From the IMG/VR virus record IMGVR_UViG_3300028908_000006, positions 26,339 through 90,338 of that record: 64,000 nt of DNA; one strand, written 5' to 3'. The stretch is from a virus. The notes below the pieces were generated by a model, which saw only the letters and a program-made list of their open reading frames with translations, was not told the origin of the DNA and made no database searches. This document shows positions 20,618 to 59,593 of the stretch, one piece after another. Each line of letters begins with the position of its first letter. The first letter of the stretch is position 1. A program made the translations under genes and the position numbers.

Positions 20618-20980
20618 ATGGTGCGTGGCGAAACAATAACAGTATCAGCCATTGGATGTTCTTATTTTCCTCTCACTTCCATCGATGTCATCAAAAACTT
20701 CCTTATTAACACAGTTAAACTGCTTGGTATGACTCCTGTAGATGACACTCTCACCATAAGAACCTTTCCAACCCTTGATGGTAGAGGAGACTATGGTATC
20801 TCTGGATTTTTGATTTTAACAGAATCCCACATCTCTGTCCATACATGGCCCCAGGAAAAATTCATCAGGGTAGAGTTCTCGTCCTGTAAACCTCAGGATG
20901 AAAGTGAAAAGATCATAGAATCGTGCATAGAGGCTACATTCATCCCGGATTCCATGAAAACCATGAAATTGAGATGGTGA
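20618..20980 (+). CDS. speD: S-adenosylmethionine decarboxylase proenzyme (SpeD/SpeH type)
   Basis: GISGFLILTESHISVHTWPQ self-cleavage motif. Confidence 0.9.
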   Translation: MVRGETITVSAIGCSYFPLTSIDVIKNFLINTVKLLGMTPVDDTLTIRTFPTLDGRGDYGISGFLILTESHISVHTWPQEKFIRVEFSSCKPQDESEKIIESCIEATFIPDSMKTMKLRW

Positions 20981-22573: not shown

Positions 22574-22858
22574 ATGTTAGTGAAGGAGAAGATACTTTCC
22601 TTGATACCAAAGGAAAAGCAAGGAGCTATTGTTGGTGATGAATTGTTTTTCGAATGCCCCAATCCTGAACATGATGATGAAAACTATACGAACTGTTCTA
22701 TAAACTTGAAAACAGGCCTGTATTATTGCTTTGTGTGTGGAGAGAAAGGCAACTTGAAGAAACTAAGTCGCATTTACAAATCGTCATCTAACAATATGGA
22801 GTATGATCCATTCAAGCCCGCTAAACAGGGCGTCAAACGAAGCTGGAGAATATGGTGA
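22574..22858 (+). CDS. stand-alone CHC2 (primase-type) zinc finger
   Basis: CPNPEH...YYCFVCGEKGN. Confidence 0.8.
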   Translation: MLVKEKILSLIPKEKQGAIVGDELFFECPNPEHDDENYTNCSINLKTGLYYCFVCGEKGNLKKLSRIYKSSSNNMEYDPFKPAKQGVKRSWRIW

Positions 22859-24318
22859 GTGATCCCAGAATCGAAGTAAGTGACGTAGCCCACCCATACC
22901 ACACCAGTAACGTGTCTTTGTGGCGTGAGTGCCACCTCGCTTTTAGAGGTGGTAAGGAGTTTATAGAGTATGTGATCTCACGCCATCAGCTTGAACTTGA
23001 TGATGATTTTTACATCCGTAAAAAGAGAGCCTTCTACCTGAATTTCGTGAAACGGATCGTAAATACGATGACGGACATCATTTTCGATAATATGATAGTC
23101 CGTCCAACGATTGATAAATACAAAGTTTTAAAACCTTTTTACAAGAAAGCGTCTTTCTATGGCGAATCGTATGAGACCTTCATAAGGAGAGTTTCAAAAC
23201 TCTCCTCTGTTTTTGGTTGGGTAGTGGTGGCCGTTGATTTCTTCGGGACAAAGGTACCCACTCTTGCTGATGTTGAAAATGGTGTTGCATACCCGCGTTT
23301 GAGGCTCTTCACTCCCCTTGAATTTGTTGATTGGCAGAGAAATGGTGATGGGTTCAAGTATGGGGTGGTGAAGAGAGAGGTCTATGTGAAGGAAGATCCT
23401 GACAATCCGTTTTCTGAGACAAAGAACATAGATGAATATATCCTTTATACCGATAAAGAAGTCGTTGTAATCAGAGAGGATGTAATTTCAGCACGTTACA
23501 AGCATAACCTCGGATTCGCTCCTTTGATCCTGGTAAATGATTCCACAGTTGACGAGTTTGGGTTCTCTGAACCCCTCATCAAGGATGCCTCTCGAATAGC
23601 GGCCACAATAGTAAACTGGTCGTCTGTTCTTGATGAGGTCTTTTCAAGACAGACATTGTCCCAGCTTGTCTATCCCAATGAAGGGTCAATTGAAGAGGAA
23701 GCAGCAAGGCTCCTGGATCGTAGCAACATCCAGGGCCAGATCTCAAACCTGGATGATCTGGCTAACTTCGAGAAACTAGTGTTGAAGAAGATAGGGACGG
23801 CCAAAGTATTTACATATCCGGCAAATGCCGGCCACCCTCCACAATATATCTCACCACCGGCTTCTGATATGAGGATTGGCTGGGAGATAATAATGCAGCT
23901 TGCCCAGGTGATGTTCTTCCTTGTTGGTCTTGGTAGTGTGAGAGAAGATATTTATACAGCATCTTCCAAGGCCAGAGAGTCTGCTCTTTCTTTGATGAAG
24001 TCATACCTTAAGGATAAGGCAAACAATCTTCAAACAGCAGAAGAGAATATTCTTCAAACATTCTTTGCCTATATGCCGCCAAGCATTTGCCCTGCATCTA
24101 TTGAAGTTAAGTATCCAGCCGAGATAGATCCTGGTCCTTATATTGATTTCTTTAACGCTACTGTTCAGTCTCTCATTAAACCGAACATATCAACGGAATT
24201 CAACAAGGCAATTCTTAAGAAGCTCGTAGATAAGTGCCCATACTTGACAGATGAAGAGAAGAGTGTTATAAAAGACGAAATAGATGCTTCTTCTGGCATA
24301 TTCAACATTCCAAAATAA
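22852..24318 (+). CDS. portal protein
   Basis: 488 aa; RKKRAFYLNFVKRIV, HNLGFAP; head-module position. Confidence 0.85.
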   Translation: MVSDPRIEVSDVAHPYHTSNVSLWRECHLAFRGGKEFIEYVISRHQLELDDDFYIRKKRAFYLNFVKRIVNTMTDIIFDNMIVRPTIDKYKVLKPFYKKASFYGESYETFIRRVSKLSSVFGWVVVAVDFFGTKVPTLADVENGVAYPRLRLFTPLEFVDWQRNGDGFKYGVVKREVYVKEDPDNPFSETKNIDEYILYTDKEVVVIREDVISARYKHNLGFAPLILVNDSTVDEFGFSEPLIKDASRIAATIVNWSSVLDEVFSRQTLSQLVYPNEGSIEEEAARLLDRSNIQGQISNLDDLANFEKLVLKKIGTAKVFTYPANAGHPPQYISPPASDMRIGWEIIMQLAQVMFFLVGLGSVREDIYTASSKARESALSLMKSYLKDKANNLQTAEENILQTFFAYMPPSICPASIEVKYPAEIDPGPYIDFFNATVQSLIKPNISTEFNKAILKKLVDKCPYLTDEEKSVIKDEIDASSGIFNIPK

Positions 24319-24352: not shown

Positions 24353-25234
24353 ATGCCTGATAAGGACAAGGATAAAGATGTGCAGAAAGATGTCCATGAT
24401 GGACAACAGCCAAACGTGAATGACGATGATGGTCGTTCAACGACTGATGCCGTTAAGAAAGGTATTGACGACATAAAGAAACAGGCTGCATCTACCAATG
24501 ATCCTGAAGTGTTGAAGATCCTGCTGGACAAAATAACCTCTCTTGAAGAGCGTTTGTTGGAGTTACAACGACAGGAGGCTGAGAGGAAGGAACGAGAGGA
24601 GCAGGAAATACTGAAGCGTATGTCTGAGACTGAGAGGTTACGTTATGAGCTTGAGAAGAAGGAAAAGGAAATTGAGAAGGTTAAGAAGGAGCTTGAGGAG
24701 AGCCTTGGGAAGAAAGCGAGGGAGCTTGAAGAGCGTCTCAAGAAATATGAAGAGGATCGCAAAAAGCTTGCTGAAGCAGCGGCCAGGGCAAAAGCATTAG
24801 AGGCCGCTTCAAGATTTGGAGCATACAATCCTGAGCAGGTTTATCTCCTTATCAAGGACAATCTTGTGGCTGGAGAAGACGGAAGCGTATTTGTAAGAGT
24901 GCGTGATGGTGAGCAATTCAAGCAGGTTCCTGTGGATGAGTATCTTAAAGAATTTCTTGCCCGTCCAGAAAACAAGAACCTCCTCAAAACCAATGCTGCT
25001 ATTGGGGACAGGGATATAAGGCCCGAGGAAGGGGTAAAGACTTCCGCCCCATCTGCTGAAGGACTCACTCCAGAGGTCGAGAAATTCTGGCGTGGTCTGT
25101 CTGAGCGTCAAAAGGAAAACATCATGAACAAAGCTATGATTATGAAGCGGCCGTGGCAGGAACTGGCTCACCTGGAGTATATCAAATATACAAAGGCCAA
25201 ACAATACAAGGAAAAATATATGAAGCGATCTTAA
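24353..25234 (+). CDS. capsid scaffolding protein
   Basis: Acidic N-terminus, E/K coiled coil, GAYNPEQV motif. Confidence 0.8.
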   Translation: MPDKDKDKDVQKDVHDGQQPNVNDDDGRSTTDAVKKGIDDIKKQAASTNDPEVLKILLDKITSLEERLLELQRQEAERKEREEQEILKRMSETERLRYELEKKEKEIEKVKKELEESLGKKARELEERLKKYEEDRKKLAEAAARAKALEAASRFGAYNPEQVYLLIKDNLVAGEDGSVFVRVRDGEQFKQVPVDEYLKEFLARPENKNLLKTNAAIGDRDIRPEEGVKTSAPSAEGLTPEVEKFWRGLSERQKENIMNKAMIMKRPWQELAHLEYIKYTKAKQYKEKYMKRS

Positions 25235-25273
25235 CTCCTGATTCAGAAATGACGAGTCAGGAGGGAAGCTATT

Positions 25274-25519
25274 ATGGCCAGAAAGAAGTCCAAGTTTAGA
25301 GTCCAGGAAGCTATCAAGCGTCCTGGTCGTGTTAGGAGCTACATCAAGAGACTTTATGGTGACAGGGCATTTACCAAGCAGGGCACGATCAAGCAGGAGT
25401 ATCTCATGCGTGCCATTGAACGTGTCAAGAATTCCAGAATGCCTAAGGAAAAGAAGAAGTCGTTACTTTCTGCACTAAATCTGGCAAGGAATCTCAAGTC
25501 TTGGGCAAAGAAGAGATAA
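25274..25519 (+). CDS. basic DNA-binding virion protein resembling fusellovirus SSV1 VP2
   Basis: AIKRPGRV..RLYG.RAFTK.G.IK..YL..PKEKK.SLLSAL.LA matches my recollection of SSV1 VP2. Confidence 0.75.
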   Translation: MARKKSKFRVQEAIKRPGRVRSYIKRLYGDRAFTKQGTIKQEYLMRAIERVKNSRMPKEKKKSLLSALNLARNLKSWAKKR

Positions 25520-25938
25520 ACGAAATTGTCGAGCTTTCAGAGGTTATAGAAGAGGCTCAGGATGATATGGTTGACATTCCTGAGCCTCTTCATGCTGGTG
25601 AAATAACAGATCCCCATGAGATTGAAGAGAAGCTGGCTGAACTTCCGGAGGAGCTAAAAACCCATGCTGCTCAGGGGATATTGAAGAAGATTGATGAGGG
25701 GCTTGAGTGGGCTGAGAGAGGAGTGAGACAGTTCTTCAATACCTCTCCGAAGAGAGCTGTAGAGTTCCAGCAAAACTACATTTCATTCCTGGAACTTAAA
25801 GCCAAAATCCTGAAACTCATCTCTGATACCGGTAGCACGAAACAACAGGCTGTTAGTGCACAACAGAATAACATCATTGTAGATCCTGAATCGGCAAAGG
25901 AACTTGTTAACAAGCTGGTAAAGAAGCTCTATGAATAA
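25501..25938 (+). CDS. putative terminase small subunit
   Basis: Helical 145-aa ORF overlapping the TerL start. Confidence 0.5.
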   Translation: MGKEEINEIVELSEVIEEAQDDMVDIPEPLHAGEITDPHEIEEKLAELPEELKTHAAQGILKKIDEGLEWAERGVRQFFNTSPKRAVEFQQNYISFLELKAKILKLISDTGSTKQQAVSAQQNNIIVDPESAKELVNKLVKKLYE

Positions 25939-27511
25939 CATTGATGTCTCAAGTCTTTCAGACAATGAAAGGAAACTTCTCGGATATGCTTGTTCACTTG
26001 ATTTCAAGGCTTTTATAGCCGTCTGTCTGAGAGACCAACTCAACTATCCTTTTTCGCCCTTCCATGATTTCATTTGTGACCTTATAACCCATAAGCTTGG
26101 GAGCAGGATGCGATATGTGGTAGCAGCTCCCCGTGGATTTGGAAAGAGCTCCATCATAACGGAAGCTGCTGCCTTATGGCTTATCTGTCGTAGAGAATAC
26201 ATTTCTCTGTCCGATAGAGATCCAAGGAATAAAAACTACATCATAGTGATTTCAGACACCATAGATCAGGCCGTGGAGCACCTGGCAAACGTAAAAGAGT
26301 TGCTTGTGAACAATGATACGATACGGATGTTGTTTCCAAATGCTTCTGGTGAGGGGCGGGTATGGAAATCAGACATGATTGTTTCAAGATCCGGGGTTGT
26401 GGTGAGATCTCTTGGAACGACATCCAAGATAAGAGGACGGAGATTTGGGTTTGCAAGGCCGGATCTTGTCCTTGCGGATGATATAGAGAATCTTGAAATG
26501 GTGCAATCTGAATCTATGAGGAACTATCTCTATGAGTGGTTCACGCGTGACGTGTTGAAAGCAGTTGATCCGGAACGCTCAGATGTCATCGTGGTTGGAA
26601 CGATAATATCCAAGAATGCTTTACTATACAAGTTGTTTCACTCTGAAGAATTTGCAGGGTGGGATGGTAGGAAGTTCAAAGCCATTATTTCCTGGCCAAA
26701 GAGGATGGATCTGTGGGATGCCTTTGGTGAGATCATAAAAGATCGCAGAGATCCGAATAGATTCCAGAAAGCTATGGAATTTTATGAAGCGCACAAAGAG
26801 GAGATGGACGAGGGTGCTGAGATACTATGGCCTCAGAGATTTACTCTTGTTGACCACATGACAGAGTTCTATCTCGAAGGCAAAAAAACGTTCATGCTGG
26901 AAAGACAGAATGAGGTTGTGGAAGATGTAGATCGTGTCTTTGAGATTGATAAATACTACTATTATCAGGATGAGGAGCTGGAAGAAATACCAAAATCAAG
27001 ACTCCTTTTCTATATGTATGTAGATCCAGCCACGGGCAAGAAGAAAGGCAGATCACGAAAACAATCAACTGATATGTTTGCCTGTGTGGTGATAGCAAAG
27101 GACATTGGAACGAACGTGTATTATCTGATAGATTACTACGCTGATATTATATCACCCAACAGGCAATTCGCTGTAATAAAGAAATTCATAAACACATATC
27201 CGATATACAGGTTCTTCGTGGAATCAAATACAAGCCAGTTCTACTACTACGAGTCGTTGAGAGATTGGTTGTTGAGGTCCGGGATACATCGCCCGATACC
27301 GAGACCTCATGTGAACAAGGAAAACAAAGAAAGAAGGATTGAGGCTCTGGCACCGTATCTTGAGAACTGGACATTGAGACTGTCTCCAAACCACAGACAG
27401 ATGATAAGGGATCTTGAGGATTATCCGGCAGTAGAATACGATGACCTTCTTGATTGCCTTTCATCCTGTTTCTTCAATGCATACAAACAAAGGAGATTGG
27501 TTATTGCCTGA
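25931..27511 (+). CDS. terminase large subunit
   Basis: APRGFGKS Walker A, RPDLVLADDIE Walker B, YVDPA and DDLLD nuclease motifs. Confidence 0.95.
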   Translation: MNNIDVSSLSDNERKLLGYACSLDFKAFIAVCLRDQLNYPFSPFHDFICDLITHKLGSRMRYVVAAPRGFGKSSIITEAAALWLICRREYISLSDRDPRNKNYIIVISDTIDQAVEHLANVKELLVNNDTIRMLFPNASGEGRVWKSDMIVSRSGVVVRSLGTTSKIRGRRFGFARPDLVLADDIENLEMVQSESMRNYLYEWFTRDVLKAVDPERSDVIVVGTIISKNALLYKLFHSEEFAGWDGRKFKAIISWPKRMDLWDAFGEIIKDRRDPNRFQKAMEFYEAHKEEMDEGAEILWPQRFTLVDHMTEFYLEGKKTFMLERQNEVVEDVDRVFEIDKYYYYQDEELEEIPKSRLLFYMYVDPATGKKKGRSRKQSTDMFACVVIAKDIGTNVYYLIDYYADIISPNRQFAVIKKFINTYPIYRFFVESNTSQFYYYESLRDWLLRSGIHRPIPRPHVNKENKERRIEALAPYLENWTLRLSPNHRQMIRDLEDYPAVEYDDLLDCLSSCFFNAYKQRRLVIA

Positions 27512-28358: not shown

Positions 28359-28889
28359 TTAGGTTATTCCAAGTTTTTCTACAAACCAGGGAATATTTGG
28401 GATTACTTCTTCCGGATGCATCTCTTCCATTTTCTTCCTCAGGCTTAAAATAATATCTTCTCTTGCAAACCTGAACGTCTCTAAATCATCCAAAAACCTC
28501 AGAAGCCCAAGATAGCAGAAATCTGCAGGAAGGGGTGCCTTTGGGGAGATGAATCCATGCGGATAAGTCTGTTTTATTTCTTTGTTTTTGATGGTGGTGA
28601 TGTGGTAGAATAATTCGCTGCGCCATTGAACAAAATAAGGAACTCTGATAACTCGCATTCCATATTCTCTTAGAAGGCTTGATTTACTCTTATCGTTGAG
28701 AATCACTTTTGCCTTCGTGTAATGTAACGGACCATCGAACTCTACGACAGTATCAAGGTCTGGGATATAAATATCTGGAATAACTACTCTTCCAGCAACC
28801 TTTATCCTTTTGTTTCTTTCAATTTTTAATTCACATTCTCTTTTTAAGTATCTGTATAACCTTTCTTCCGTTAGAAACTTTTCTCTCAT
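28359..28889 (-). CDS. DUF559/Vsr-like PD-(D/E)XK endonuclease
   Basis: PDIYIPDLDTVVEFDGPLHY...GMRVIRVPY; start at MREKF. Confidence 0.8.
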   Translation of the reverse strand: MREKFLTEERLYRYLKRECELKIERNKRIKVAGRVVIPDIYIPDLDTVVEFDGPLHYTKAKVILNDKSKSSLLREYGMRVIRVPYFVQWRSELFYHITTIKNKEIKQTYPHGFISPKAPLPADFCYLGLLRFLDDLETFRFAREDIILSLRKKMEEMHPEEVIPNIPWFVEKLGIT

Positions 28890-28938
28890 AGCGATGTATC
28901 TACCACAGAAGCTTGTTGTAGTCAAGATTAAAAATTTT

Positions 28939-28988
28939 AGCCTAACTACTTCCTCCCAAAATAACAAGGATAGGAGGAAGTAGTTATG
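28939..28988 (+). promoter_or_regulatory. RBS-sequestering hairpin in capsid-gene leader
   Basis: Perfect 14-bp stem TAACTACTTCCTCC/GGAGGAAGTAGTTA; 22-mer repeated at 32413-32434. Confidence 0.8.
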
Positions 28989-29993
28989 CCCTACGATATT
29001 ACAACCTTTAAAGAGTATATAGAGAAAGAGGCGTATTCGATCTTCTTCGACTCGCTTCCTGCCCCGGACCAGCCTTACTATCAGTTCGTTGAGGTGGATG
29101 AGGATACCGGTAAGATTCTCCACCAGACAGATTCTCTTGCTTACTCCGGGACTCTTGATACCTGGGAAGAGGGAGACACCCTCACTTATGAAGAGCCTCA
29201 GTTCGGTTATCCGGTGTATGGCCGAGTGAGGTTCTTCAGGAAGGGACGTAAGCTTACCTGGCATCAGCAGCAGATTCAGTCCCTCGCGGACCAGCTTCTG
29301 GCTCAGGTGCGTGATTGGGCCTGGGCTTATACCAGGACTAAGAATGAGTGGATTCGCCGGATGATCGAGGAAGGCGCTTTGACGGCTGGTTCTGCAGTAT
29401 TCAACCAGTCCATTGCTGGTTCCGATCCCTGGACAGACCCAACTGGTAACTTTATCTATGATAACAAGCCTTTCTTTGCCAATGACCTGTCTGGGACGGG
29501 TGGAAGCGACAATCGTCACCCTCTCAAGACAGATCCTACTAAGCTTTATGAGAACTATGCGGCTCTTCCGCTTACTTATGATAATTTGCTCACGGTTTAC
29601 AACAAGATGGTCCAGAACAATGTTGACGACTGGGGCCGTAAGATAGAGGTGCGACCTGATATTCTCCTGGTGCCAACTGCTCTTGAAGTAACTGCTCGTC
29701 AGCTGGTGGAAGCCGACTTCGCGCCTCATGATGATACCACTCCATCCAAGCCTAACCCGTTCAAGAATGTGCTTCGGGTAGTGGTATGGCCTGAGCTTCA
29801 GGTAAGTGATGGGTGGTGTTTGATCGATTCCAAGATGAAGGGAATCGTGGTGCTTGAGAATCCGGCTGACGTTGACATCAACGTTTGGATTGATGAGAAG
29901 GAGCGGGCGCTTTACTGTGACATCGTGTGTAAGTTTGGTGCCTATGTAAGGAACTGGCGTCCGTTCTTTGGTTGTAACTATCCTCAGAGCTAA
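28986..29993 (+). CDS. major capsid protein (HK97 fold, Mu gpT-like)
   Basis: 335 aa; YDNKPFFA, IEVRPDILLVPTALE, NWRPFFG. Confidence 0.85.
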   Translation: MPYDITTFKEYIEKEAYSIFFDSLPAPDQPYYQFVEVDEDTGKILHQTDSLAYSGTLDTWEEGDTLTYEEPQFGYPVYGRVRFFRKGRKLTWHQQQIQSLADQLLAQVRDWAWAYTRTKNEWIRRMIEEGALTAGSAVFNQSIAGSDPWTDPTGNFIYDNKPFFANDLSGTGGSDNRHPLKTDPTKLYENYAALPLTYDNLLTVYNKMVQNNVDDWGRKIEVRPDILLVPTALEVTARQLVEADFAPHDDTTPSKPNPFKNVLRVVVWPELQVSDGWCLIDSKMKGIVVLENPADVDINVWIDEKERALYCDIVCKFGAYVRNWRPFFGCNYPQS

Positions 29994-32412: not shown

Positions 32413-32461
32413 AGCCTAACTACTTCCTCCCAAACAAAATAGATGAGGGAGGAAGACTATG
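32413..32461 (+). promoter_or_regulatory. RBS-sequestering hairpin in tail-tube leader
   Basis: CTTCCTCCC/GGGAGGAAG stem; 22-mer identical to capsid leader. Confidence 0.75.
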
Positions 32462-33442
32462 CCACAGGTAACAGGCTCGTTCGGTAGAGTAGTAATAGAC
32501 ACTGAACAGACATATAAGACTGAAAAAACAACGAAGGCTGGATGGATTATACCATTCACTACGTGTTCTCTCGGTAAGGATCAGAACCTGCTTGAGAGTA
32601 ACACCATCTCTGCTTCTCGTAACCCACAACAGCCCGGTCTCGGGCAGATAAACGTATCCGGCGACCTGAGTGTTGAGCTTGGTGGAGCGGCCCACACTCG
32701 CCTTCTCTACCTGGCTCTTGGTGGTTACTCTGTAACCGGGACAGGGCCTTACACCCACACCATCAAGGTTGGGTCGTCTATCCCATCCTTTATTACAGAG
32801 GTTCGTTTCTCTGATGGTGATGCTTTCACTCGTTATGCGAAATATGATGGTTGTAAGATCAATCAATGGTCATTTGCTGTCAGGACTGATGCCTTTGTAG
32901 AGAGCACCTTCTCCATCATAGGATCTGAAGAGGTATTCGGCAGCACGGCTTACCAGGCTGATACAGATCTTGAAGATCCCGGCCTGAAGCCATTTACGAA
33001 CTACAATGCTACTCTCTATCTTGGTGGTAGTGCGGTGGCCTTCATTACCGAGATTTCGTTTACTGTTACCAATAACTTGGATGAAAATACATTTGCTATT
33101 GGGTCTGGCTCTGCCAGGACTTCGTTGCCAGAAGGCCGGGTGGCGGTCAATGGTAGCTTTACTGCCCAGTTCGTAGAAGATGTTGAGACCTACATAAACA
33201 TAGCTCAGAATTCTGATGAAACTCAGATTCAGATAGATCTTCAGCGTGGGACTGGTGATGGGACCGATGGTAATGAGAAGATTTCCATTCTGTTTCCTGA
33301 AGTGAAGCTGCAACCGCCCCGTAAGGAAATCCCTGGGCCTCAGGGAGTATTCCTTACGTTTAATTTCATTGCTTATGCTGATGATACTGATTCTGCTATA
33401 CAGGTCACTTGTAACAACAGCATAGCTGATCTGTCCATCTAA
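32459..33442 (+). CDS. major tail tube protein
   Basis: YTHTIK, YDGCKIN, FTVTNNL, LPEGRVAVNGSF pattern. Confidence 0.88.
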   Translation: MPQVTGSFGRVVIDTEQTYKTEKTTKAGWIIPFTTCSLGKDQNLLESNTISASRNPQQPGLGQINVSGDLSVELGGAAHTRLLYLALGGYSVTGTGPYTHTIKVGSSIPSFITEVRFSDGDAFTRYAKYDGCKINQWSFAVRTDAFVESTFSIIGSEEVFGSTAYQADTDLEDPGLKPFTNYNATLYLGGSAVAFITEISFTVTNNLDENTFAIGSGSARTSLPEGRVAVNGSFTAQFVEDVETYINIAQNSDETQIQIDLQRGTGDGTDGNEKISILFPEVKLQPPRKEIPGPQGVFLTFNFIAYADDTDSAIQVTCNNSIADLSI

Positions 33443-34692: not shown

Positions 34693-37600
34693 ATGGCCAG
34701 AGATACCGTAAGGACGGAAGTAGAGGTCCAGATAAACCCTCTAATTGATGGTCTCAATGACCTCATAAGGGCCCTTGAGATCTATAAGCAGGATATTCCT
34801 CGTGGTCTTGATGCATTCACACGGGCCCAGGAGCAGTTTGCTACCTCTCTGGAGAAGGCCAGCAAAGCGCAGCGTTCTGCTGCTGGAATGCTGATAAACC
34901 AGGTGAAGCGTGATGTAAACTCCGTCCTTAGGGAATTCGATAAACTGAAGGTAAAAGCCGGCCTGATTGCAAAGGAGCTATCGGATATTGCTCCAAAAAT
35001 TGGCGGGGAGCAAGCAAAGGAGCTTGCCAGAGAACTCTCTATTGTTGAGAAGCAGGTCAAAAATATTGCAAACGATTTTTCAACTGTTCTTCCGAAGGCT
35101 CTGAAAGAGAATCGCCAGATACTCACGACTCAGTTCACAACCGATCTCAGGAAGATAAGCAGAGAGTTTGATAACATCGTCAAGAAAGCTCGCCAACTAG
35201 CTGCTGAGAATGAAAGAGCCGAGCGAGCTGAGAGAAGGAGACTTATAGAGACTGAAAGGATACGCGCTCGTTATCAAGACAGAGTATCACGCATAAGAAC
35301 AGGCGAGGAATTCAGGAAGACAGCACGAGAAATATCCTCTGTAAGAAGGAATGTCCAGGCCCTGGGCAGGGAGATAGAGAAGGAAGCTTCCAGGCTTGAT
35401 ACTCTCAATAAGAAGATGATGGCTGGGGCACGGAGCCTTGAACAATTCGAGGCCCGTGTCGCAGCTAGAATGAAACAGCAGGAAAAACTCTATGCCATTC
35501 GTGGACGTGAGCTCTCTCTCATAGCAGAGAGAATGCGCACCTATCCATTTCAGGCCCATGAGCTTGCTCGACCAGCAGAGCAAGTAATAACATCGATGTG
35601 GATTGCCGGGCCAAGACAGACACTCAAGACGTGGTGGGCTGAGGCCGGTAAGATCGCAGAGAAAGAAGGGCGAAGGCAGGCCGGTGTCTTCATCCAATCC
35701 TTTGGGCAGTTCTTCAAACAAAACTTTGCAAGAGCATTTGGGGCCTGGTTGGGTGCCGCCATTACAACCTTCCCAATCGCTTATGGTGTTATTTCTACAA
35801 TTGGGGAGCTGAACCGGCAATATAACGTGCTGGTTGATGTCTCTCGTTATGTCCAGTCAGCAACGGTTGGTGTGGCCGGGACGTTTGCTGATCTCTCCGG
35901 GATAATGAAGAACATCATATCCCTCTCTGTCAAAACAGGAAAGAGCTTCGAGGAAGTTGGTAAGGCTCTCTGGGAAATGAAATCTGCTGGTTTTGGTATG
36001 AGGGAAGCTCTTGCTGGGACAGAAGTGGCATTGAAACTCACCATGTTAGCTGGTGGCGGCATAGACATAGGTAAGGCCACAAGAATAGTGGCTGGTATGT
36101 ATAGATTGTTCAAAGATCAGTTTGCTGGGATCGCTGATGAAACGGAACGCTTCAAAAATATGTTTGGTGAAGTGGTCTATGTCCTTAACTCCAGCCAGAT
36201 AGCATTAGACGAACTATTGAGATCATTTGAATACTTTGGTGCTACTGCCAAAGCAACAGGAATGCCTCTTGAGCAGATGCTGGGCTATCTATCTGTGCTA
36301 TCTGATGAGAGACTTCCAGGGGTAGGTAGGGCGGCCAGGCAGGCTGCGAACCAGATAGCCCAGGCCATTCCAATGATAGCAGCCAGGTATGGGATCGTTC
36401 TTGACTCATCTAAAAGCCTGGCTTCTGAAATGAACAAGGTGTTCGAAGCACTCAATGCCAGGATAAAAGATGGGACGCTATCCCTTGAGGAATTTTCAGT
36501 CTGGATGAAAGAAGCCGGAGTGAGAGGCGGACCTGCTATCATAGCGCTCGCACGTAACTGGGACAAGGTGAAGAGGACAATTGAATTGTTGAAAGACTCT
36601 CAGAAATCTCTCGCAATGGATTTCGATGAGTTCTTCGAAACCGTTGCTGAGATAAGAATGTCAACTTTTGAGATGCAATGGAACCGCCTCAAGAACGCCA
36701 TCTTCGGTGTTACAGCAGAAGGGATACATCCTCTCAAGAACGAGATGGCCGATCTGTTCAAGATAATGGCTGATGGATTTGAGACTTTATGGAAAGCTCT
36801 TGATAATACAAGTCTTGCCCTTGATGCCTTACTTGCAAGTGCCGGCGCCTTCATTGGAGCTCGAGTTGGTGCCGCCACAGGTGCAATGTTTGGTGGTCCG
36901 CTTGGAGCAATGATAGGCGGATCACTTGGTCTTGGTGCCGGTATAGGGCTTGGTAAGTTCCAGCATTGGTCTGAAGAACAGATCCAGAAACAAATAATAG
37001 GATTCACGTATGATGATCTGTCGAAAGCCATAAACAATCTCTTTGCCCCAGAACGTTTCGTGCCGCTCATAGAGGACGCTCTTTCAAATGTCAAGAAGAG
37101 CATGGACACCGTGGATGCCGCTTTTGGAGACGATCTCATAGAATCGTCATTTTCGTATGACGAAGCAAGCGTGAAGGCGGCAGCTGAGAGGATAGCAAGA
37201 GCATTCAACGCCCAGTTCGTGCTGGCTATATCAAGTTCTAATCTGAAAGACGAAATAAGTAAGAAGCTTAGTGAATCGTTCAGGATTGATCCAGATGTCA
37301 TAGCCAATATGATACAGTCCGGGGCCACGACAGAGGAGATATGGAAGTATATAAACGATAGGTTACTTGAGGCCGCTGAAGCTGCTGGTGTAACTGAAGA
37401 ACAGTTGCGATCTCTCACGACAACTTTAAAGGAAGGTTATACAGAGACAAAGAGATATGCCGACAATCTGAAATATTTTGCTGAGACCCTTGTCTTGGCT
37501 TCCACAGGAAAGAAAGGGCTTGAAAACGCTGCCATTGGCATAAATGAGAATTACAAATCCCTTCTTGTTACTCTTGGGCGTCTGTCAGATAAGCTTTATG

Positions 37601-40600
37601 AAATAAAACAAATAGAAGCAAGAATTGCTGCCGGGGAATCTGGTGATGAATTGGCCCGGCAATGGAATGAACTTGTCGCCCAGGCCAACGCCTTATCTGA
37701 TAGTGTTGTAACGTATGCCAAGAATATAGCTTCCAAGTATTCAACAATTTCAAGGGGAATCTCTGAAATAGAGAACAAATACAGGTCTCTTGCAGCCATT
37801 GGGAATCCTTTTGAAGGTATGTTAAAGGCTGCGGATGACATTGAACGTATCAGAAAAACGATAGCGGCCTTGAATAGTGAAGGGACAAGGTTCAAAGAAG
37901 TTGGGAAGAAGATAGAGGAAGCTCTGGCAAATGTATCAGATGAGAATATCAGGAAAGGGCTTGAGGCCCTTCTTGATATATACAAGAAGATAGGAGAGCT
38001 ATCTGGTAAGGATTTCGGTGGTCTTAAGGAAAGTATATTCGATGCTGAACTCGATAAGATCCTGAAGAAACTTGATACCAAGATCAGAAGCCATGTTGTA
38101 GCTCTTGGTGAAGATCTGTCAGGTGATATTGCCCAGATATACAAAGACACCGTGAATGCTGTCCTTTCTGGAGAAGGTGCAGAAGGCACTTCAGCCATTG
38201 ATGAACTTGAGAAACAATTGAAGGCGCGAAGAGATGAGATAGTAAGTAAATACGGAGAAGAAAAGTATAAAAAGATTCTTGATGAGATAATAGACCGTAA
38301 GAAGAAGCTAATCCAACTAGAGGAAATAAGGATAGGACTAGCTGAATCAAAGAAGATAATAGAGGCGCTGAAGAAGGAAAAGGAAGCTGTCCAGTCATTG
38401 GGAGACGTTTACAAAGAAGTTTCTGATATGGTCTTTGAGCTTTATGTATCTTCTCTACCTGAAAAGGAGCAAGAATACATAAAGCTCGTTCAAAAATATA
38501 ACGAGCTGTCAGGGAGGATAGTCCAGGAACGAAACAAAGCCTTAGAGGCTGGTGTTGATATATCTATATATGATAAAGCGCAGGAGTTACTGGACGAATG
38601 GTTAAAGAAACAAAAAGAGATACTTGAAGGGCAGGAAAAGATAAAGATAGGGCTAGCTGAATCAAAAAAGATAATAGAAACTTTGAAAAAAGAAAAAGAG
38701 GCATTACAGAGCCTTGGAGACACATATAGAGAAGTATCAGAGCTAGTATTTGAGCTTTATGTATCATCGCTACCTGAGAAGGAACAGGAATATATAAAGC
38801 TGGTCAGGAAATACAGAGAATTATCTGGGAAGATAATACAGGAGCGTAATAAAGCCCTAGAGGCTGGTATAGATACCTCAGCATACGATAGAGCACAGGA
38901 GTTACTGGATGAATGGTTCAATAGACAAAAAGAGAAATTAAACGAGCAGTATGACATCCATAAGAAAACTACTGAAAAGATAAAGAATATATGGAAAGGA
39001 GTTCCAGACAGCCTAGAAAACGTCATTGCCAATTGGATACGTGAGCTGAAAGTAGATTTTGATGATGTTGTTGAGATAGTGAAGGATGCTGCTGCACGAT
39101 CGGTTGCAGCCTGGATAATGGCCTGGGCACAGGCCCAATTCATGGTTCCCATCCCGATGGCCGCTCCAGCGTATGGTGGCGGCCAGGCTGGAGTTCAGGT
39201 AGGAGGGGCATCTGCTGGCGGTGGATTCGTTGCTCCACCAGGCACGTGGAGTGCCTTCAATAATGGGCTCCAGAATTACTTTACTGCCCCAACACGTTTC
39301 ATGGGCTGGCTTACCTATTCACTCCCATCAGGCCCATGGACAAAGCCTTTAGCATACGGAACCGCATGGCTTTACAATAACCCGTGGGCCTCTGCCGGCA
39401 TCATGTCCGGTTTTACTACCTACCTCTTCACCGGTGATTTGAAATCAGCAGCCTTTTCAGGCTTAGGAGCGGGAATTGGTTATGCACTTGGAGGTCCTGT
39501 AGGCGGTTTTCTCGGCGGGGCCGCTGGTTCATTTCTTGGGGGATTATTTGGAAAGAAGAAATATCCAAAGGTGAAATATGAAGCTGAATTTACTGTTGAT
39601 TTTGTCCCTGGAAGTGGATTCAGGTTAGCAGAATTCGATCTTACAACCACTAGAAAACACGGGGCTAAGAAAGAATATGAGGAAAGTGTCAGGAAGGAAA
39701 TAGAACAGATAATAAATCAGCCTATTGACTGGCTGAACCAGATGTATGCCGAGGTTATTGGAGATCTACCTGACAATTTAAGGCAGCGCTTTGATAGAGA
39801 GCTGGCGCAGATCAAATATAGTGCAACATTAAAAGAAAGAACACACAAGTCCCTGAAGGGTGACATAAATACCATGCAGTTTCAGGCATATATCAGGGAC
39901 TTGTTTCTCACGTATGGCCAGACGTTTGAAGAGGCATTCCAGGAAGAGATGCGGCTTGGTGTAGAAAAGTTTGAAGTCGTATCTCCATATCTAAAAGAGA
40001 ATGTAAGAAACTGGATCGTGGAGCAGGCGCAGGAGCTGTTTCCTGACGATGTGTTCGAAAAATTAAAAGAAATCCCAATAGAAAACATGGGATCTAAGGA
40101 TTTCGAAAAGTGGCTTGAAGAGAACATCAAGCCGCTCTTTGACGACATCTCAGCCTGGGAAGAGTTCTACGACTGGGCAATGGAATATCTGTCCAATGTT
40201 GAAGAGATCGTTACCTCCATCGAGGATGGCCTAAAGTATTTCACTTCATTCGGATCAAAGATGCGCTCGCTGTCAATTGAGTTCAAAGAACTCGTATCAC
40301 AGATGGATGAGATGGGAATTGATTTCTCAAAGCTATATGACTCCTACAAAAACATGGTGCAGCAGCAGTTCAGATTGTCACTCGTCCAACAGTTTCCTGA
40401 GCTATATTCTGGTGATTTGTATCTAGAAACACTTATGAACAATCTTGCACCGGTGATTGATTATCTTGGCATTGGTTATGAGCAAATATGGAACTTGGTT
40501 AAATCTGGAAATTATCAAGCATTTACAGACATCCTATGGAATATAGGCGACAACCTTGAGTTCCTAATGCAGGTCTCAGAAGAAACAGGTATATCAATAG

Positions 40601-41592
40601 AAGATTTGATAGGGTATCTGGCATCTCTTGGTGATGCTGCCTACCAGGTGAACCAGCAGCTGGCTCAGCTCCAATATACGGCAGCATCAAGCGTGTTTGA
40701 GTGGAAAGGTGGAAGCTATGAGCTCTATGTAAAGAGACAGCGGCTTTCAGAAATAGAGGCAAAATATGGTATCTCTGATCGCGAAGTAGAGTATCTAGCA
40801 AATATGTATTACAAGTATCTTACAGGCGACCAGCAGGCTAAACAATTCGCAGAAGAGCTAATTGCTGCCTACGGGACAGAAGGAGAGAGGGACGCTTTAG
40901 AAGCTATCACGATCTGGACAGAACTCCAAAAGAATAATATGCGTGAGGCTTCAGATTATTCCAGCCAGATTCCTGATTACATGGATAAAGCAAAGCAGAA
41001 GATGATAGAGGCGCTCGATCTAATAGATCAAAAAATTACAGATCTAAAGCTTGGATCGCTTAACGTGGCTCTTCCAACTGAAAAACTGTCTGTTGCTGAA
41101 GAAGAATATAGAAAACTCTATAAAGAGGCACTATCAGGCGATAGTGACGCATTACGTGAGTATCTTAGTTTCAGCAGTCAATATCTTGAACTTTACCAAA
41201 GTGTATATAAATCATCGGAAGAGTATCAGAAAAAGTTTGACCAGGTAATGAGAGATCTTGAATACCTGAAACAGGTGTATGGGAGTCTCCCGTCATATCA
41301 GACAGGTGGTGTGGTAGAGGCGAGCCAGCTTGCAATTCTTCACGGGCCCGAAGCTGTGGTTCCGCTTGTAAATGGAGCGATCCCAGTTGCTATATCAGGT
41401 GGTGTTTCAAAAGAAGAGCTGGTAGAAGCTATGAAGGTGGCAATTTTATCAGCAGCAAATGAACGCCCACTAATGATAAAGGTATACATTGGTGGTGAAG
41501 AATTAACAGAGCATATCATAAAACTTGTTGACGAATACCGGGTCCAGGCTGCTGCAAGAAACGTCGTAGCGGATACTGTGAGGGTTTTCTGA
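34693..41592 (+). CDS. tail tape measure protein
   Basis: 2299 aa, helical, TP901-like core, Gly-rich hydrophobic segments, SYQTGGVV..LHGPEAVVPL end. Confidence 0.95.
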   Translation: MARDTVRTEVEVQINPLIDGLNDLIRALEIYKQDIPRGLDAFTRAQEQFATSLEKASKAQRSAAGMLINQVKRDVNSVLREFDKLKVKAGLIAKELSDIAPKIGGEQAKELARELSIVEKQVKNIANDFSTVLPKALKENRQILTTQFTTDLRKISREFDNIVKKARQLAAENERAERAERRRLIETERIRARYQDRVSRIRTGEEFRKTAREISSVRRNVQALGREIEKEASRLDTLNKKMMAGARSLEQFEARVAARMKQQEKLYAIRGRELSLIAERMRTYPFQAHELARPAEQVITSMWIAGPRQTLKTWWAEAGKIAEKEGRRQAGVFIQSFGQFFKQNFARAFGAWLGAAITTFPIAYGVISTIGELNRQYNVLVDVSRYVQSATVGVAGTFADLSGIMKNIISLSVKTGKSFEEVGKALWEMKSAGFGMREALAGTEVALKLTMLAGGGIDIGKATRIVAGMYRLFKDQFAGIADETERFKNMFGEVVYVLNSSQIALDELLRSFEYFGATAKATGMPLEQMLGYLSVLSDERLPGVGRAARQAANQIAQAIPMIAARYGIVLDSSKSLASEMNKVFEALNARIKDGTLSLEEFSVWMKEAGVRGGPAIIALARNWDKVKRTIELLKDSQKSLAMDFDEFFETVAEIRMSTFEMQWNRLKNAIFGVTAEGIHPLKNEMADLFKIMADGFETLWKALDNTSLALDALLASAGAFIGARVGAATGAMFGGPLGAMIGGSLGLGAGIGLGKFQHWSEEQIQKQIIGFTYDDLSKAINNLFAPERFVPLIEDALSNVKKSMDTVDAAFGDDLIESSFSYDEASVKAAAERIARAFNAQFVLAISSSNLKDEISKKLSESFRIDPDVIANMIQSGATTEEIWKYINDRLLEAAEAAGVTEEQLRSLTTTLKEGYTETKRYADNLKYFAETLVLASTGKKGLENAAIGINENYKSLLVTLGRLSDKLYEIKQIEARIAAGESGDELARQWNELVAQANALSDSVVTYAKNIASKYSTISRGISEIENKYRSLAAIGNPFEGMLKAADDIERIRKTIAALNSEGTRFKEVGKKIEEALANVSDENIRKGLEALLDIYKKIGELSGKDFGGLKESIFDAELDKILKKLDTKIRSHVVALGEDLSGDIAQIYKDTVNAVLSGEGAEGTSAIDELEKQLKARRDEIVSKYGEEKYKKILDEIIDRKKKLIQLEEIRIGLAESKKIIEALKKEKEAVQSLGDVYKEVSDMVFELYVSSLPEKEQEYIKLVQKYNELSGRIVQERNKALEAGVDISIYDKAQELLDEWLKKQKEILEGQEKIKIGLAESKKIIETLKKEKEALQSLGDTYREVSELVFELYVSSLPEKEQEYIKLVRKYRELSGKIIQERNKALEAGIDTSAYDRAQELLDEWFNRQKEKLNEQYDIHKKTTEKIKNIWKGVPDSLENVIANWIRELKVDFDDVVEIVKDAAARSVAAWIMAWAQAQFMVPIPMAAPAYGGGQAGVQVGGASAGGGFVAPPGTWSAFNNGLQNYFTAPTRFMGWLTYSLPSGPWTKPLAYGTAWLYNNPWASAGIMSGFTTYLFTGDLKSAAFSGLGAGIGYALGGPVGGFLGGAAGSFLGGLFGKKKYPKVKYEAEFTVDFVPGSGFRLAEFDLTTTRKHGAKKEYEESVRKEIEQIINQPIDWLNQMYAEVIGDLPDNLRQRFDRELAQIKYSATLKERTHKSLKGDINTMQFQAYIRDLFLTYGQTFEEAFQEEMRLGVEKFEVVSPYLKENVRNWIVEQAQELFPDDVFEKLKEIPIENMGSKDFEKWLEENIKPLFDDISAWEEFYDWAMEYLSNVEEIVTSIEDGLKYFTSFGSKMRSLSIEFKELVSQMDEMGIDFSKLYDSYKNMVQQQFRLSLVQQFPELYSGDLYLETLMNNLAPVIDYLGIGYEQIWNLVKSGNYQAFTDILWNIGDNLEFLMQVSEETGISIEDLIGYLASLGDAAYQVNQQLAQLQYTAASSVFEWKGGSYELYVKRQRLSEIEAKYGISDREVEYLANMYYKYLTGDQQAKQFAEELIAAYGTEGERDALEAITIWTELQKNNMREASDYSSQIPDYMDKAKQKMIEALDLIDQKITDLKLGSLNVALPTEKLSVAEEEYRKLYKEALSGDSDALREYLSFSSQYLELYQSVYKSSEEYQKKFDQVMRDLEYLKQVYGSLPSYQTGGVVEASQLAILHGPEAVVPLVNGAIPVAISGGVSKEELVEAMKVAILSAANERPLMIKVYIGGEELTEHIIKLVDEYRVQAAARNVVADTVRVF
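38326..38935 (+). repeat. in-frame 315-bp tandem duplication in tape measure gene
   Basis: I(R/K)IGLAESKKIIE...ELYVSSLPEKEQEYIKLV...AQELLDEW occurs twice, starting at 38326 and 38641. Confidence 0.92.
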
Positions 41593-44945: not shown

Positions 44946-46136
44946 ATGCCAACTACTCAAATGAAAGTTTTTGTAGTAGACGCAGAAGGTGAGCCTCTTC
45001 TACCTACTACTCCAGCAAGAGCAAGGTTATTGTTGAAAAGAGGGAAAGCAAGGGTTTATAGAATGATTCCATTTGCAATTCAGTTAAACAGAGCTGTTAA
45101 CAATCATGTTGGAAAATTCACGGCAGCTGTTGATGATGGAGCTAAGTGGATAGGAATTGCTGTTAAAGGTAAAGATGAAATTGTATTTGCCGCTAACGTT
45201 AGGTTGAGACAGAATGTGAGTAAGAAAGTCAAAGAAAGAGCAATGTATCGTAGGAACAGAAGAAACAGATTAAGATATAGGCCCGTACGGTTTTTGAATA
45301 GAAGTAGGGAAAAAGGTTGGTTGCCTCCTTCTATCAGATATAGGAAAGAGGTTGTTCTGAGAGTTATTAATGACCTTAGAAAATTTCTCAACATTACAGA
45401 TATTGTTATTGAACAAGGTTCCTTTGACGTTTCTTCAATTGCGGCAGGTAAAAAACTTAGTGGTAGGGAATACCAACAGAAGCGATATGAAGGTAAAAAC
45501 TTTAGAGAGAAGGTTCTTAAAAGAGATGGTTATACTTGTCAGATTTGTGGTAGTAGGAGAAGTCTTGAAGTGCACCATATAGTCCCAAGAAGCAAGGGTG
45601 GGACTAATATTGTGGAAAATGGGTTTACACTTTGTAAAGATTGCCACAAAGCTGTCCATGATGGAAAGGTAAAATTGACTGCTAACGTATTATCTCCAAA
45701 GTATGCTTCTATTACTCAACAAGGAAAGTTGTGGTTGTATAGGAAACTGAAAGAACAGTTCAGAAACGTAGAAATGACTTTTGGTTATTTGACAAGAAGA
45801 ATGAGAGAAAAGCTTGGACTTACAAAGGACCACTATGCAGATGCTTGCGCGATGCTTAACTGCAACAGAATAACCTCTCCCGTTTATCTCATCATTCCAC
45901 GAAGGAGGAGACCAGAGGTAAATAATCCAGCTAAAAAACGTGATGAGTATAAAGGTTTCAGACATTTTGACATTGTAGTTGCCTATCATAAGACAAAAGG
46001 AAAGGTAGTTGGCTGCGTGAGGAGTTTAAAAAAGAATGGTTTAGCGATAAGAACAAAGTTTTCAGACAACTTTGTGGTTGGATATACGAAGAGCAAACTA
46101 TTGTGGAGACCAAGAGGGTTAGTGTATGTGGTTTGA
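44946..46136 (+). CDS. iscB: RNA-guided endonuclease IscB
   Basis: PLLP (PLMP) domain, RuvC-I VDDGAK, bridge helix RRNRR, RuvC-II IEQ, HNH EVHHIVPRSKGG..LCKDCH, RuvC-III HYADA. Confidence 0.93.
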   Translation: MPTTQMKVFVVDAEGEPLLPTTPARARLLLKRGKARVYRMIPFAIQLNRAVNNHVGKFTAAVDDGAKWIGIAVKGKDEIVFAANVRLRQNVSKKVKERAMYRRNRRNRLRYRPVRFLNRSREKGWLPPSIRYRKEVVLRVINDLRKFLNITDIVIEQGSFDVSSIAAGKKLSGREYQQKRYEGKNFREKVLKRDGYTCQICGSRRSLEVHHIVPRSKGGTNIVENGFTLCKDCHKAVHDGKVKLTANVLSPKYASITQQGKLWLYRKLKEQFRNVEMTFGYLTRRMREKLGLTKDHYADACAMLNCNRITSPVYLIIPRRRRPEVNNPAKKRDEYKGFRHFDIVVAYHKTKGKVVGCVRSLKKNGLAIRTKFSDNFVVGYTKSKLLWRPRGLVYVV

Positions 46137-58648: not shown

Positions 58649-59593
58649 CTAAAGTTCATGTCCAATACATTCATACCCATTCAAGTCTGTTATCCAAATA
58701 CGGTCTGCATATTTTGCGAGGTTACTCTTTTTTATAATTTTAGCAACATCTCCCCACTTCAATTCACCGGCACCACAACCTGGTTTAGGAAGTACAATCC
58801 GATTCCATTTATATTCCTTTATAAGTTCCGCCAACCCATTAGCAGATTTTAAAATGGTATCCAGGTCAGCTTTAAGGAGATAGCCAGGCACAAGATCTCC
58901 TGGTAGGAAACGGTTTCTAGCATGAGATACCAACTCACAGGGATATTGATCTTCTGCACGTTTTACCGGGAACGATACAATAGCAGTTTCTTGAACTTTC
59001 CCAAGTATCCCAGGGCAATTGCCGTTATGTATTAGATGCTTACCAAGCCTATATTCTATATCTGGTAACCATACTTTAGCTTGGTAAGCCACTCCACGGC
59101 CCATCACACCGCGTGGTTTTCTAGTTTTCTTATCCCGGACCACAAAACCATTTGTAGTCACACAAATAGCATCAGATTTCCCTAACATAAACCAAATAGA
59201 AAAGTATTCTGTTCTGATAATCTTCATTCGAACTAGCTTATTGAATTTGTGAGCAGTAATTATTGTATGAGCTGTCCCTCGTGAAACACCATCCCAGAGG
59301 GCAATAATCAGATCAGAGGCCTCAACCATTTTGTGGTTGCGGATCAATCCTGCTCTCTTACCATACCGATACCAATCTGGTAGAAACCTTTTAATAGGAA
59401 TACCTTTATTACTTGCCCACTTTTCTGCAAGACGATCAACGCCACTAGCACCGCCAGAAATGATCGTTACCCGAGTGAGATCCAAATCTGCCGTAAGGTG
59501 GTTAAGATAGTGAAATACACTATCCTGGTCAGTAATAGAACGACTACCACAAATACAAACTCTCATAACTTTAACGATCTCCCATTCAGACAC
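58649..59593 (-). CDS. YspA-type SLOG domain fused to DarG/Poa1-like macrodomain
   Basis: CGSR, ISGGASGVD, RNHKMV, WDGVSRGT; then VTTNG, VMGRGVA, SFPVK, LPKPGCGAGELKW. Confidence 0.85.
   Translation of the reverse strand: MSEWEIVKVMRVCICGSRSITDQDSVFHYLNHLTADLDLTRVTIISGGASGVDRLAEKWASNKGIPIKRFLPDWYRYGKRAGLIRNHKMVEASDLIIALWDGVSRGTAHTIITAHKFNKLVRMKIIRTEYFSIWFMLGKSDAICVTTNGFVVRDKKTRKPRGVMGRGVAYQAKVWLPDIEYRLGKHLIHNGNCPGILGKVQETAIVSFPVKRAEDQYPCELVSHARNRFLPGDLVPGYLLKADLDTILKSANGLAELIKEYKWNRIVLPKPGCGAGELKWGDVAKIIKKSNLAKYADRIWITDLNGYECIGHEL

Follow-up and report, generated by a model that had tools for sequence, protein, structure and literature searches.

A VP2-family gene, akin to that of the archaeal virus SSV1, in the head module of a tailed phage

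A short open reading frame in the head gene cluster of a phage raises two questions: is it a true relative of VP2, the DNA-binding virion protein of the spindle-shaped virus SSV1, and if so, what could such a protein do in a virus with a head, a tail and a terminase? The stretch of 64,000 nucleotides that we analysed (the window) comprises bases 26339-90338 of a 90,338-bp IMG/VR record of an uncultivated virus, whose direct terminal repeats were measured at 127 bp. The initial annotation had described an 81-aa basic ORF between the scaffold and the terminase, and this ORF is present, with a further reading frame, ORF145, also lying before the gene of the large terminase subunit, TerL (Table 1).

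Table 1. Positions of features in the window and in other VP2-bearing loci (L numbers).
Feature	Position	Strand	Remarks
Portal protein gene	22852..24318	+	phrog_145 E 1.3e-36
Head scaffolding protein gene	24353..25234	+	phrog_206 E 8.8e-11
Shine-Dalgarno AGGAGG	25259..25264	+	9 nt 5' of the VP2-like ATG
VP2-family gene	25274..25519	+	ATG start, 81 aa; matches PF25632 and phrog_15706
ORF145	25501..25938	+	acidic N-terminal third, helical C-terminal half; maybe starts at ATG 25567
Large terminase subunit gene (TerL)	25931..27511	+	phrog_38 E 2.3e-84
Major capsid protein gene, Mu gpT / HK97 type	28986..29993	+	PF10124, PF25209, phrog_371
Tail tube protein gene	32459..33442	+	PF18906 Phage_tube_2 E 3.2e-41
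Gene of 2299-aa tape measure protein	34693..41592	+	PF10145 PhageMin_Tail E 3.1e-14
IscB gene (RRXRR + HNH), full-length, tail region	44946-46136	+	identity to Desulfurobacterium IscB
VP2-fusion ORF, L004	8627-10195		VP2 twice in tandem
VP2-fusion ORF, L011	8672-10204		
VP2-fusion ORF, L010	88-966		
L009	9683-10207		two tandem VP2-family genes 3' of tail-fibre/hydrolase-like genes; 13.6-kb virus fragment
L020	9986-17317		VP2 gene, then directly a 2364-aa protein without any family

The relationship to VP2 is clear from several comparisons. The Pfam family PF25632 (Fusello_VP2_Capsid), with a curated gathering cut-off of 27 bits, matches the window protein with 101.1 bits (E 4.6e-29), residues 10-80 corresponding to profile positions 4-74 of 74, and the PHROG that holds VP2-family proteins, phrog_15706, matches it with E 2.9e-24. 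When the whole virus record was searched with the family in six frames, the ORF scored 100.1 bits. A global alignment with the 74-aa VP2 of SSV1 runs without a single gap and has 46/74 identical positions; SMF1 VP2, with 47/74, is hardly nearer to SSV1 VP2 than the phage protein is, and SSeV VP2, with 36/69, is less near. The Smith-Waterman score against SSV1 VP2 is 220, and among 2000 composition-preserving shuffles of the window protein none scored as high (31.7 +/- 5.7, maximum 66). BLASTP with compositional adjustment gave E 1e-18 with 28/42 identical residues, the lysine-rich C-terminal part falling outside the reported alignment. The first reading of the sequence, which proposed a match to SSV1 VP2 over nearly the full length, is thus borne out by the profile, BLASTP, the gap-free alignment and the shuffles, and the similarity survives the correction for composition; the motifs then quoted (AIKRPGRV, RLYG.RAFTK.G.IK and PKEKK.SLLSAL.LA) are found in both proteins in the alignment. 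A tblastn search against 50,697 phage records gave 19 matching records, 15 of them of fusellovirus type and four from Thermus phages (IN93 twice, Tsatsa and phiFa). None of the 19 reached at least 80% query coverage, because BLAST drops the lysine-rich C-terminus.

The protein itself has the features of the family. With 81 residues, 27 K+R against 5 D+E, a pI of 11.6 and a mass of 9.7 kDa, it lies within the size and charge range of VP2-family proteins (about 65-110 aa, strongly basic). Columns with an identical residue in at least 90% of 50 family members are all kept (10/10: G18, R19, Y23, G29, A32, F33, G37, Y43, L70 and A71), and the family core W-I-Q-x-A-[IV]-K-R-P-G-R, Y-G..A-F...G, Y-L and C-terminal L-A is present, its WIQ reading R-V-Q in the window protein. 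An AF2 model built with the 50 family members (pLDDT 81) predicts helices at residues 17-32, 41-53 and 58-80 and a disordered basic N-terminus. Judged by these features the ORF is a member of the VP2 family (PF25632), and it is predicted to be a functional one.

The genes from portal to TerL lie on one strand, tightly spaced or overlapping. The stop of the scaffold gene is separated from the VP2-like start by 39 nt, the 3' end of the VP2-like ORF overlaps ORF145, and the end of ORF145 overlaps TerL. Besides its PHROG match the scaffold gene has a Pfam Phage_scaffold match with E 0.0015, which is under the cut-off, and the matches of the capsid gene to PF10124 (E 1.2e-6) and PF25209 (E 3.5e-6) are both over it. 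The motif AGGAGG stands not only before the VP2-like gene, it also precedes the scaffold and capsid genes, and the portal gene, ORF145 and TerL are without such a strong motif. A consensus scan of the plus strand returned neither a promoter-like site between 23892 and 27706 nor a terminator-like site between 23207 and 32225; the scan is crude and the number of sites was no higher than in shuffles, and for this reason co-transcription of the scaffold-to-TerL stretch is only presumed.

Some further features of this region deserve mention. The position of the TerL block, with scaffold on one side and capsid on the other, is unusual. On the minus strand between TerL and the capsid gene there is a DUF559 endonuclease-like ORF (28359-29003; E 3.1e-4, barely over the cut-off), which may be an insertion of the homing-endonuclease kind. 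A longer minus-strand ORF spans 28359-29729 and overlaps with the capsid gene; probably only the C-terminal part of this longer ORF is genuine. Just 5' of the portal gene lies an ORF of 94 aa (22574-22858, plus strand) that weakly matches the CHC2 zinc finger (E 8.7e-4, sub-cut-off).

That the head module is that of a tailed bacteriophage, as first proposed, is supported by the portal, scaffold, TerL, capsid, tail tube and tape measure genes and by transcription and replication genes of bacterial type. Outside the window the same record encodes a sigma-70 factor (regions 2 and 4), a DnaG-type CHC2/Toprim primase, a Toprim-DnaB helicase (DnaB_C), a UDG-PolA fusion, a RecA-like protein, a class II ribonucleotide reductase and a clamp-loader-like ATPase. 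By its portal, TerL, capsid and tail genes, and by sigma-70, DnaG, DnaB and PolA, the carrier is identified as a tailed phage (Caudoviricetes) of a bacterium. An archaeal host was considered as well, and the same sigma-70, DnaG, DnaB and PolA genes ruled it out. The TerL protein is quite distant from others, with at most about 31% identity to the TerL of Mu-like bacterial phages and relatives at only four loci in IMG/VR, at 24-30% identity. An indication of the host comes from the IscB gene in the tail region, the product of which is over its full length 82% identical to that of Desulfurobacterium crinifex and 79% to that of D. thermolithotrophum, the next named organism following at 43%. The Desulfurobacterium lineage belongs to the Aquificota, and the host lineage, as suggested by IscB, is probably Aquificota too.

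The composition of the proteome points to a thermophile. In 43 non-overlapping ORFs of at least 200 aa (18,505 residues), IVYWREL residues make up a fraction of 0.425, and the ratio (E+K)/(Q+H) is 3.5. The equation of Zeldovich et al. 2007 is said to translate such a fraction into a growth temperature, which here would be about 63 C. Composition and the Desulfurobacterium-like IscB together make a hot habitat and a thermophilic host likely, in agreement with the hot environment that had been supposed from the outset. The tape measure protein implies a very long tail. Other siphoviruses of thermophiles with a very long tail are on record, e.g. Thermus phage P23-45. On the minus strand further downstream, a gene at 59645-61225 has weak TROVE (Ro60-like) and VWA matches, and it adjoins a gene for a SLOG/YspA-family protein (58649-59593, also minus).

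How unexpected is a VP2-family protein in such a phage? That VP2 is common to archaeal and bacterial viruses is already in print, in the passages on this protein in PMC4158269 and PMC9608457. According to Makarova et al. 2014 (PMC4158269), citing Pawlowski et al. 2014, ORF9 of Thermus phage IN93 is a VP2 homologue, and Makarova et al. themselves found another in an Archaeoglobus provirus, the nearest relative of which was the IN93 protein. The fuselloviruses were probably late recipients of vp2 from another virus group, as a section of PMC9608457 says, citing Quemin et al. 2015. A spindle virus of Bathyarchaeia also encodes VP2. Within the literature searched we found neither a description of a VP2-family gene in a tailed phage nor a publication tying phiFa to VP2, and the term "VP2" is absent from the Thermus-phage paper that contains Tsatsa. 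What is new is modest: a close VP2 of the SSV1 type within the head-morphogenesis module of a tailed phage, a host that is probably of the Aquificota, and the recognition of gp82 of Thermus phage phiFa as a family member.

A comparison with the known systems shows how the phage stands between them. With SSV1 it shares a protein of the same HMM family, the 46/74 identity, which includes the PKEKK-SLLSAL stretch, and the extreme basicity; the SSV1 protein has 74 aa versus 81 here, and both are encoded among virion-protein genes. The hosts and the virions are different, however: SSV1 is a spindle-shaped virus of Sulfolobales, whereas the phage has a bacterial host and, by its genes, a virion with a head, a tail and a terminase motor. 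In the fuselloviruses the gene comes after those of VP1/VP3, which are the neighbours of vp2 in SSV1; adjacency to VP1/VP3, the strict mark of a fusellovirus vp2 locus, is not found in the window, where the neighbours are portal, scaffold, ORF145 and TerL. The homologues of IN93 (ORF9) and Tsatsa (gp10), both Matshushitaviridae, are likewise small basic proteins of the same Pfam and PHROG families in viruses of thermophilic bacteria, and their late-region genes are near that of the packaging ATPase, with the endolysin on one side and the minor capsid protein or packaging ATPase on the other. These phages are in contrast icosahedral with an internal membrane and belong to Varidnaviria, and the identity to the window protein is 27/71 to 30/64. 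Their subtype, with the signature KRPGRLRRYV...EGFT..RGTIRVEVL, forms a clade of its own (SH-aLRT 99; 85/94 in the 38-row tree described below). A further case is phiFa, a tailed phage (Caudoviricetes) of a thermophilic bacterium with a VP2-family gene. Its gp82, annotated as "hypothetical protein", has 29/66 identity to the window protein and is encoded after the muramidase, where it closes the late/lysis block outside the head module. The membership of phiFa gp82 shows that the VP2 family is also present in a tailed phage other than that of the window.

An exhaustive profile search of 1.84 billion representatives yielded 209 VP2 clusters at E <= 0.001; the number fell to 56 at E <= 1e-10 and to zero at E <= 1e-30. 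A word-indexed search gave only three non-self VP2 proteins. Among viral contigs, three of 43 candidate stretches held a VP2 locus with alignment A1 and five of 14 with alignment A3; among genomes it was two of 43, in Thermus composti and a Dehalococcoidia MAG, and among metagenomes 55 of 117. One representative (P0006) is the NCBI protein "capsid protein VP2 [Archaeoglobus sp.]". Sorted by eye, the sequences fall into four subtypes, SSV1-like, Thermus-phage, long-insert and C-terminal-fusion, and the window protein belongs to the first. Loci of the long-insert subtype may be fusellovirus-like in their gene order, with two small proteins beside VP2 and a protein of about 1000 aa nearby. In the fusion subtype the VP2 domain is the C-terminus of proteins of 292-623 aa in large virus records (522 aa in L004, 292 aa in L010, 510 aa in L011 and 623 aa in L070/L071). 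These fusions are in IMG/VR records of 55, 230 and 619 kb, with a G+C of 0.56-0.67. Terminase_6C and Terminase_6N had no match in the records of L004, L010 and L011, and a search for NCLDV capsid proteins, which had zero matches in any record, is uninformative about them. Longer proteins with a VP2 domain are also found among the representatives (P0020, P0141, P0151, P0129, P0050, P0126, P0081 and P0144). The non-VP2 parts of the fusions have no Pfam or PHROG family, save for P0089, in which VP2 is fused to radical SAM, and P0106, a TPR protein with a PF25632 score under the cut-off.

Across viruses the VP2-family gene tends towards late or structural regions, as in the fuselloviruses and the three Thermus phages above. 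At L057 it adjoins a gene for a tail-fibre-J-like protein, and the record of L009 (Table 1) has a weak, sub-threshold Terminase_6N match. Against this tendency, the closest relative of the window protein, with 65% identity, is at L020, on a contig where TRAP-transporter genes and an ATP-grasp gene with an intein also occur; because of the TRAP-transporter genes this is a cellular contig or an integrated element, and the neighbours of the VP2 gene are without any family. The same holds for almost all neighbours at L020, L030, L033, L042 and L045 when searched with Pfam and PHROG, and in most other VP2 neighbourhoods the genes are not annotatable. When all ORFs of the phage were compared by local phmmer with all those of the other loci, the VP2-like gene was the only one in common, besides PolA and ThyX, which phiFa also has, and a weak endolysin-like match in the IN93 group. 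No further gene was shared with SSV1 (L008), which was the sole fusellovirus locus in that search, SSV6, ASV1, SMF1 and SSeV lying outside it. Being nearly the sole shared gene, the VP2-like gene therefore moves as a single-gene module.

In the phylogenetic analyses the resolution of the trees is poor because the alignment has just 74-75 usable columns. In a quick tree of 130 rows the window protein pairs with P0007 (SH-aLRT 88), and both are inside a set with the L020 protein, P0002 and P0010 (SH-aLRT 91), which shares a weakly supported half of the tree with the Archaeoglobus protein and four of the five Fuselloviridae. A separate clade is formed by the IN93-like sequences in this tree (the SH-aLRT of 99 given above), and phiFa is placed elsewhere. 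In a tree of 38 rows, a chosen subset of the 130 with 92 rows excluded, a branch with support 92/97 splits 13 rows of the Thermus and long-insert types from the 25 others. All five fusellovirus VP2s are on the side of the 25, and with them the fusion type, the Archaeoglobus protein and the window protein. A tree constrained to unite the window protein with the Thermus-type rows, a group defined after inspection of the tree and within the 38-row subset, is worse by 15.4 log-likelihood units, and at a p-AU of 0.10 it is not rejected. The trees thus favour, within the limits of a short alignment and short of proof, a nearer tie of the window protein to the branch of the archaeal viruses than to that of the known bacterial viruses. 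As for the cross-domain gene exchange that had been proposed, the occurrence of the family in archaeal and bacterial viruses holds and was already published; the direction of transfer cannot be read from the trees.

The fold searches give no answer to the second question, what the protein does. Foldseek with the AF2 model gave nothing at E <= 0.001 against PDB or against BFVD, the best BFVD rows (E 0.07-0.3) being unnamed or uncultured-virus proteins, AMDV3_4 among them. VIA-align over 48,161 chains reached a top Z of 6.0 with generic helical proteins only, and a sequence-profile search of PDB gave nothing under E 0.049 and no solved structure of the VP2 family. A function based on fold was consequently dropped, these three kinds of search having given no informative match and no support for a DNA-binding fold.

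What remains is the known member and the setting of the gene. SSV1 VP2 comes from purified virions, binds DNA and is a putative DNA-packaging protein, as stated in passages of PMC3367457, PMC9351363 and PMC9608457. We hypothesize, and give this an even chance of being right, that the VP2-like protein is an abundant late DNA-binding protein that coats or neutralises the DNA at packaging and is at least in part carried in the head. It would be produced in large amounts along with the scaffold and the capsid protein, bind the phage DNA non-specifically via its many lysines and arginines, and neutralise the charge of the DNA during or after packaging. A fraction would then go into the head and accompany the genome, like VP2 in SSV1, and the packaged protein would perhaps stabilise or shield the DNA at high temperature or on entry. 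The binding to DNA is suggested by SSV1 VP2, the one member for which it is known, and by the charge, a high late expression by the ribosome binding site and the gene position, and the presence in the virion by analogy with SSV1. A head-tail virion in which the protein is packaged with the DNA, as the initial annotation imagined, is plausible in view of the string of late head genes and of a ribosome binding site equal to those of scaffold and capsid.

There are parallels in other viruses. The internal proteins of phage T4 and protein VII of adenovirus are small and basic, go into the capsid before the DNA or along with it, and leave together with it; those of T4 are loaded via a capsid-targeting signal and a prohead protease. 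We mean this as a functional analogy only, and no relationship of sequence or fold was sought. The DNA in the head of a tailed phage is very densely packed by the terminase motor, which would leave little room for a stoichiometric nucleoprotein. The homologue of phiFa, outside its head module, also speaks against a packaged nucleoprotein. The family can moreover be dispensable, since SSV1 deleted for vp2 was viable and looked like wild type (Iverson and Stedman 2012, as reported in a part of PMC3367457), and the literature is not uniform here, a later study cited in a passage of a 2022 minireview (PMC9608457) listing vp2 among the apparently essential genes.

A wider version of the same idea is that VP2 is a portable genome-coating module, exchanged across bacteria and archaea among spindle-shaped, membrane-containing icosahedral and head-tail viruses of thermophiles, that many copies of it are packaged in this phage, leaving the DNA in the HK97-type capsid partly neutralised by protein, and that a fairly recent transfer between an Aquificota phage lineage and fusellovirus-like archaeal viruses explains the 62% identity to SSV1 VP2. 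Taken jointly, these parts make a reading that we offer with little confidence.

An alternative that we hold to be unlikely is a DNA-binding factor that is made late and acts inside the cell, similar to a nucleoid-associated protein, and is no part of the virion. It could compact or shield replicated DNA, take part in host DNA shut-off or protect from host nucleases, and the generic basic three-helix protein predicted by the model would fit such tasks. The varied settings of the family, from the TRAP contig of L020 to the 292-623-aa fusions and the radical-SAM protein P0089, also suggest a portable DNA-binding module and not one specific for capsids. However, SSV1 VP2, the one member studied by experiment, was isolated from virions, and the position in the head gene string and the structural type of ribosome binding site suit a role at the time of assembly better.

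The gene order VP2-like, ORF145, TerL with overlapping ends raises another thought, namely that the VP2-like protein gives a small-terminase-like complex with the acidic ORF145 its ability to bind DNA, acts at the packaging site and is not itself packaged; we find this distinctly improbable. The N-terminal third of ORF145 is strongly acidic, and the protein has no recognisable DNA-binding domain, no Pfam or PHROG family and no relative in PDB. Its four homologues are at 50-61% identity, its AF2 model is poor (pLDDT 63), and an Atlas match to the small terminase of T5 (0.91, with merely 125 shared features) is a lead only. With Pfam and PHROG no recognisable small terminase subunit (TerS) was found among the ORFs scanned near TerL, and ORF145 is a candidate for it by position only. 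In IN93 and Tsatsa the packaging ATPase gene follows the homologue at a distance of two to three genes. Against such a complex, SSV1 VP2 is a virion protein of a virus without terminase, and the family works without ORF145, as phmmer finds no homologue of ORF145 in any other VP2-bearing locus. The gene is furthermore away from the terminase in phiFa, L009 and L057, and a strong ribosome binding site would be unusual for a terminase component here, TerL and ORF145 having none.

That the gene is a recently acquired passenger with no important role in the phage is very unlikely: the patchy distribution, the dispensability in SSV1, its being the sole gene in common with other VP2 loci apart from the few named above, and the odd position of the TerL block near the DUF559-like ORF, which suggests a rearranged, mosaic region, would agree with it, but the ORF is intact, has kept all nearly invariant positions, has a strong ribosome binding site and is tightly packed in the operon.

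Head-tail is the third virion architecture in the VP2 family, added to the spindle-shaped viruses and the membrane-containing phages of Thermus, and Aquificota probably a new host phylum for it; the likeness to SSV1 VP2, the founder of the family, is unusually close. Should the protein be packaged, as we hypothesize, the phage would make a nucleoprotein within a pressurised tailed-phage capsid accessible to study and give a handle on how thermophilic viruses protect their DNA. Overall this is a well-supported annotation with a hypothesis attached to it, and no new principle.

One more gene of the phage may bear on the condensation of its DNA. A little upstream of the head module, flanked by tRNA genes, there is a gene for S-adenosylmethionine decarboxylase (20618-20980, plus strand; PF02675 E 5.1e-17). 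Polyamines are counter-ions of DNA and stabilise the DNA of thermophiles, and the decarboxylase may hint at polyamine synthesis and at polyamine counter-ions for the phage DNA.
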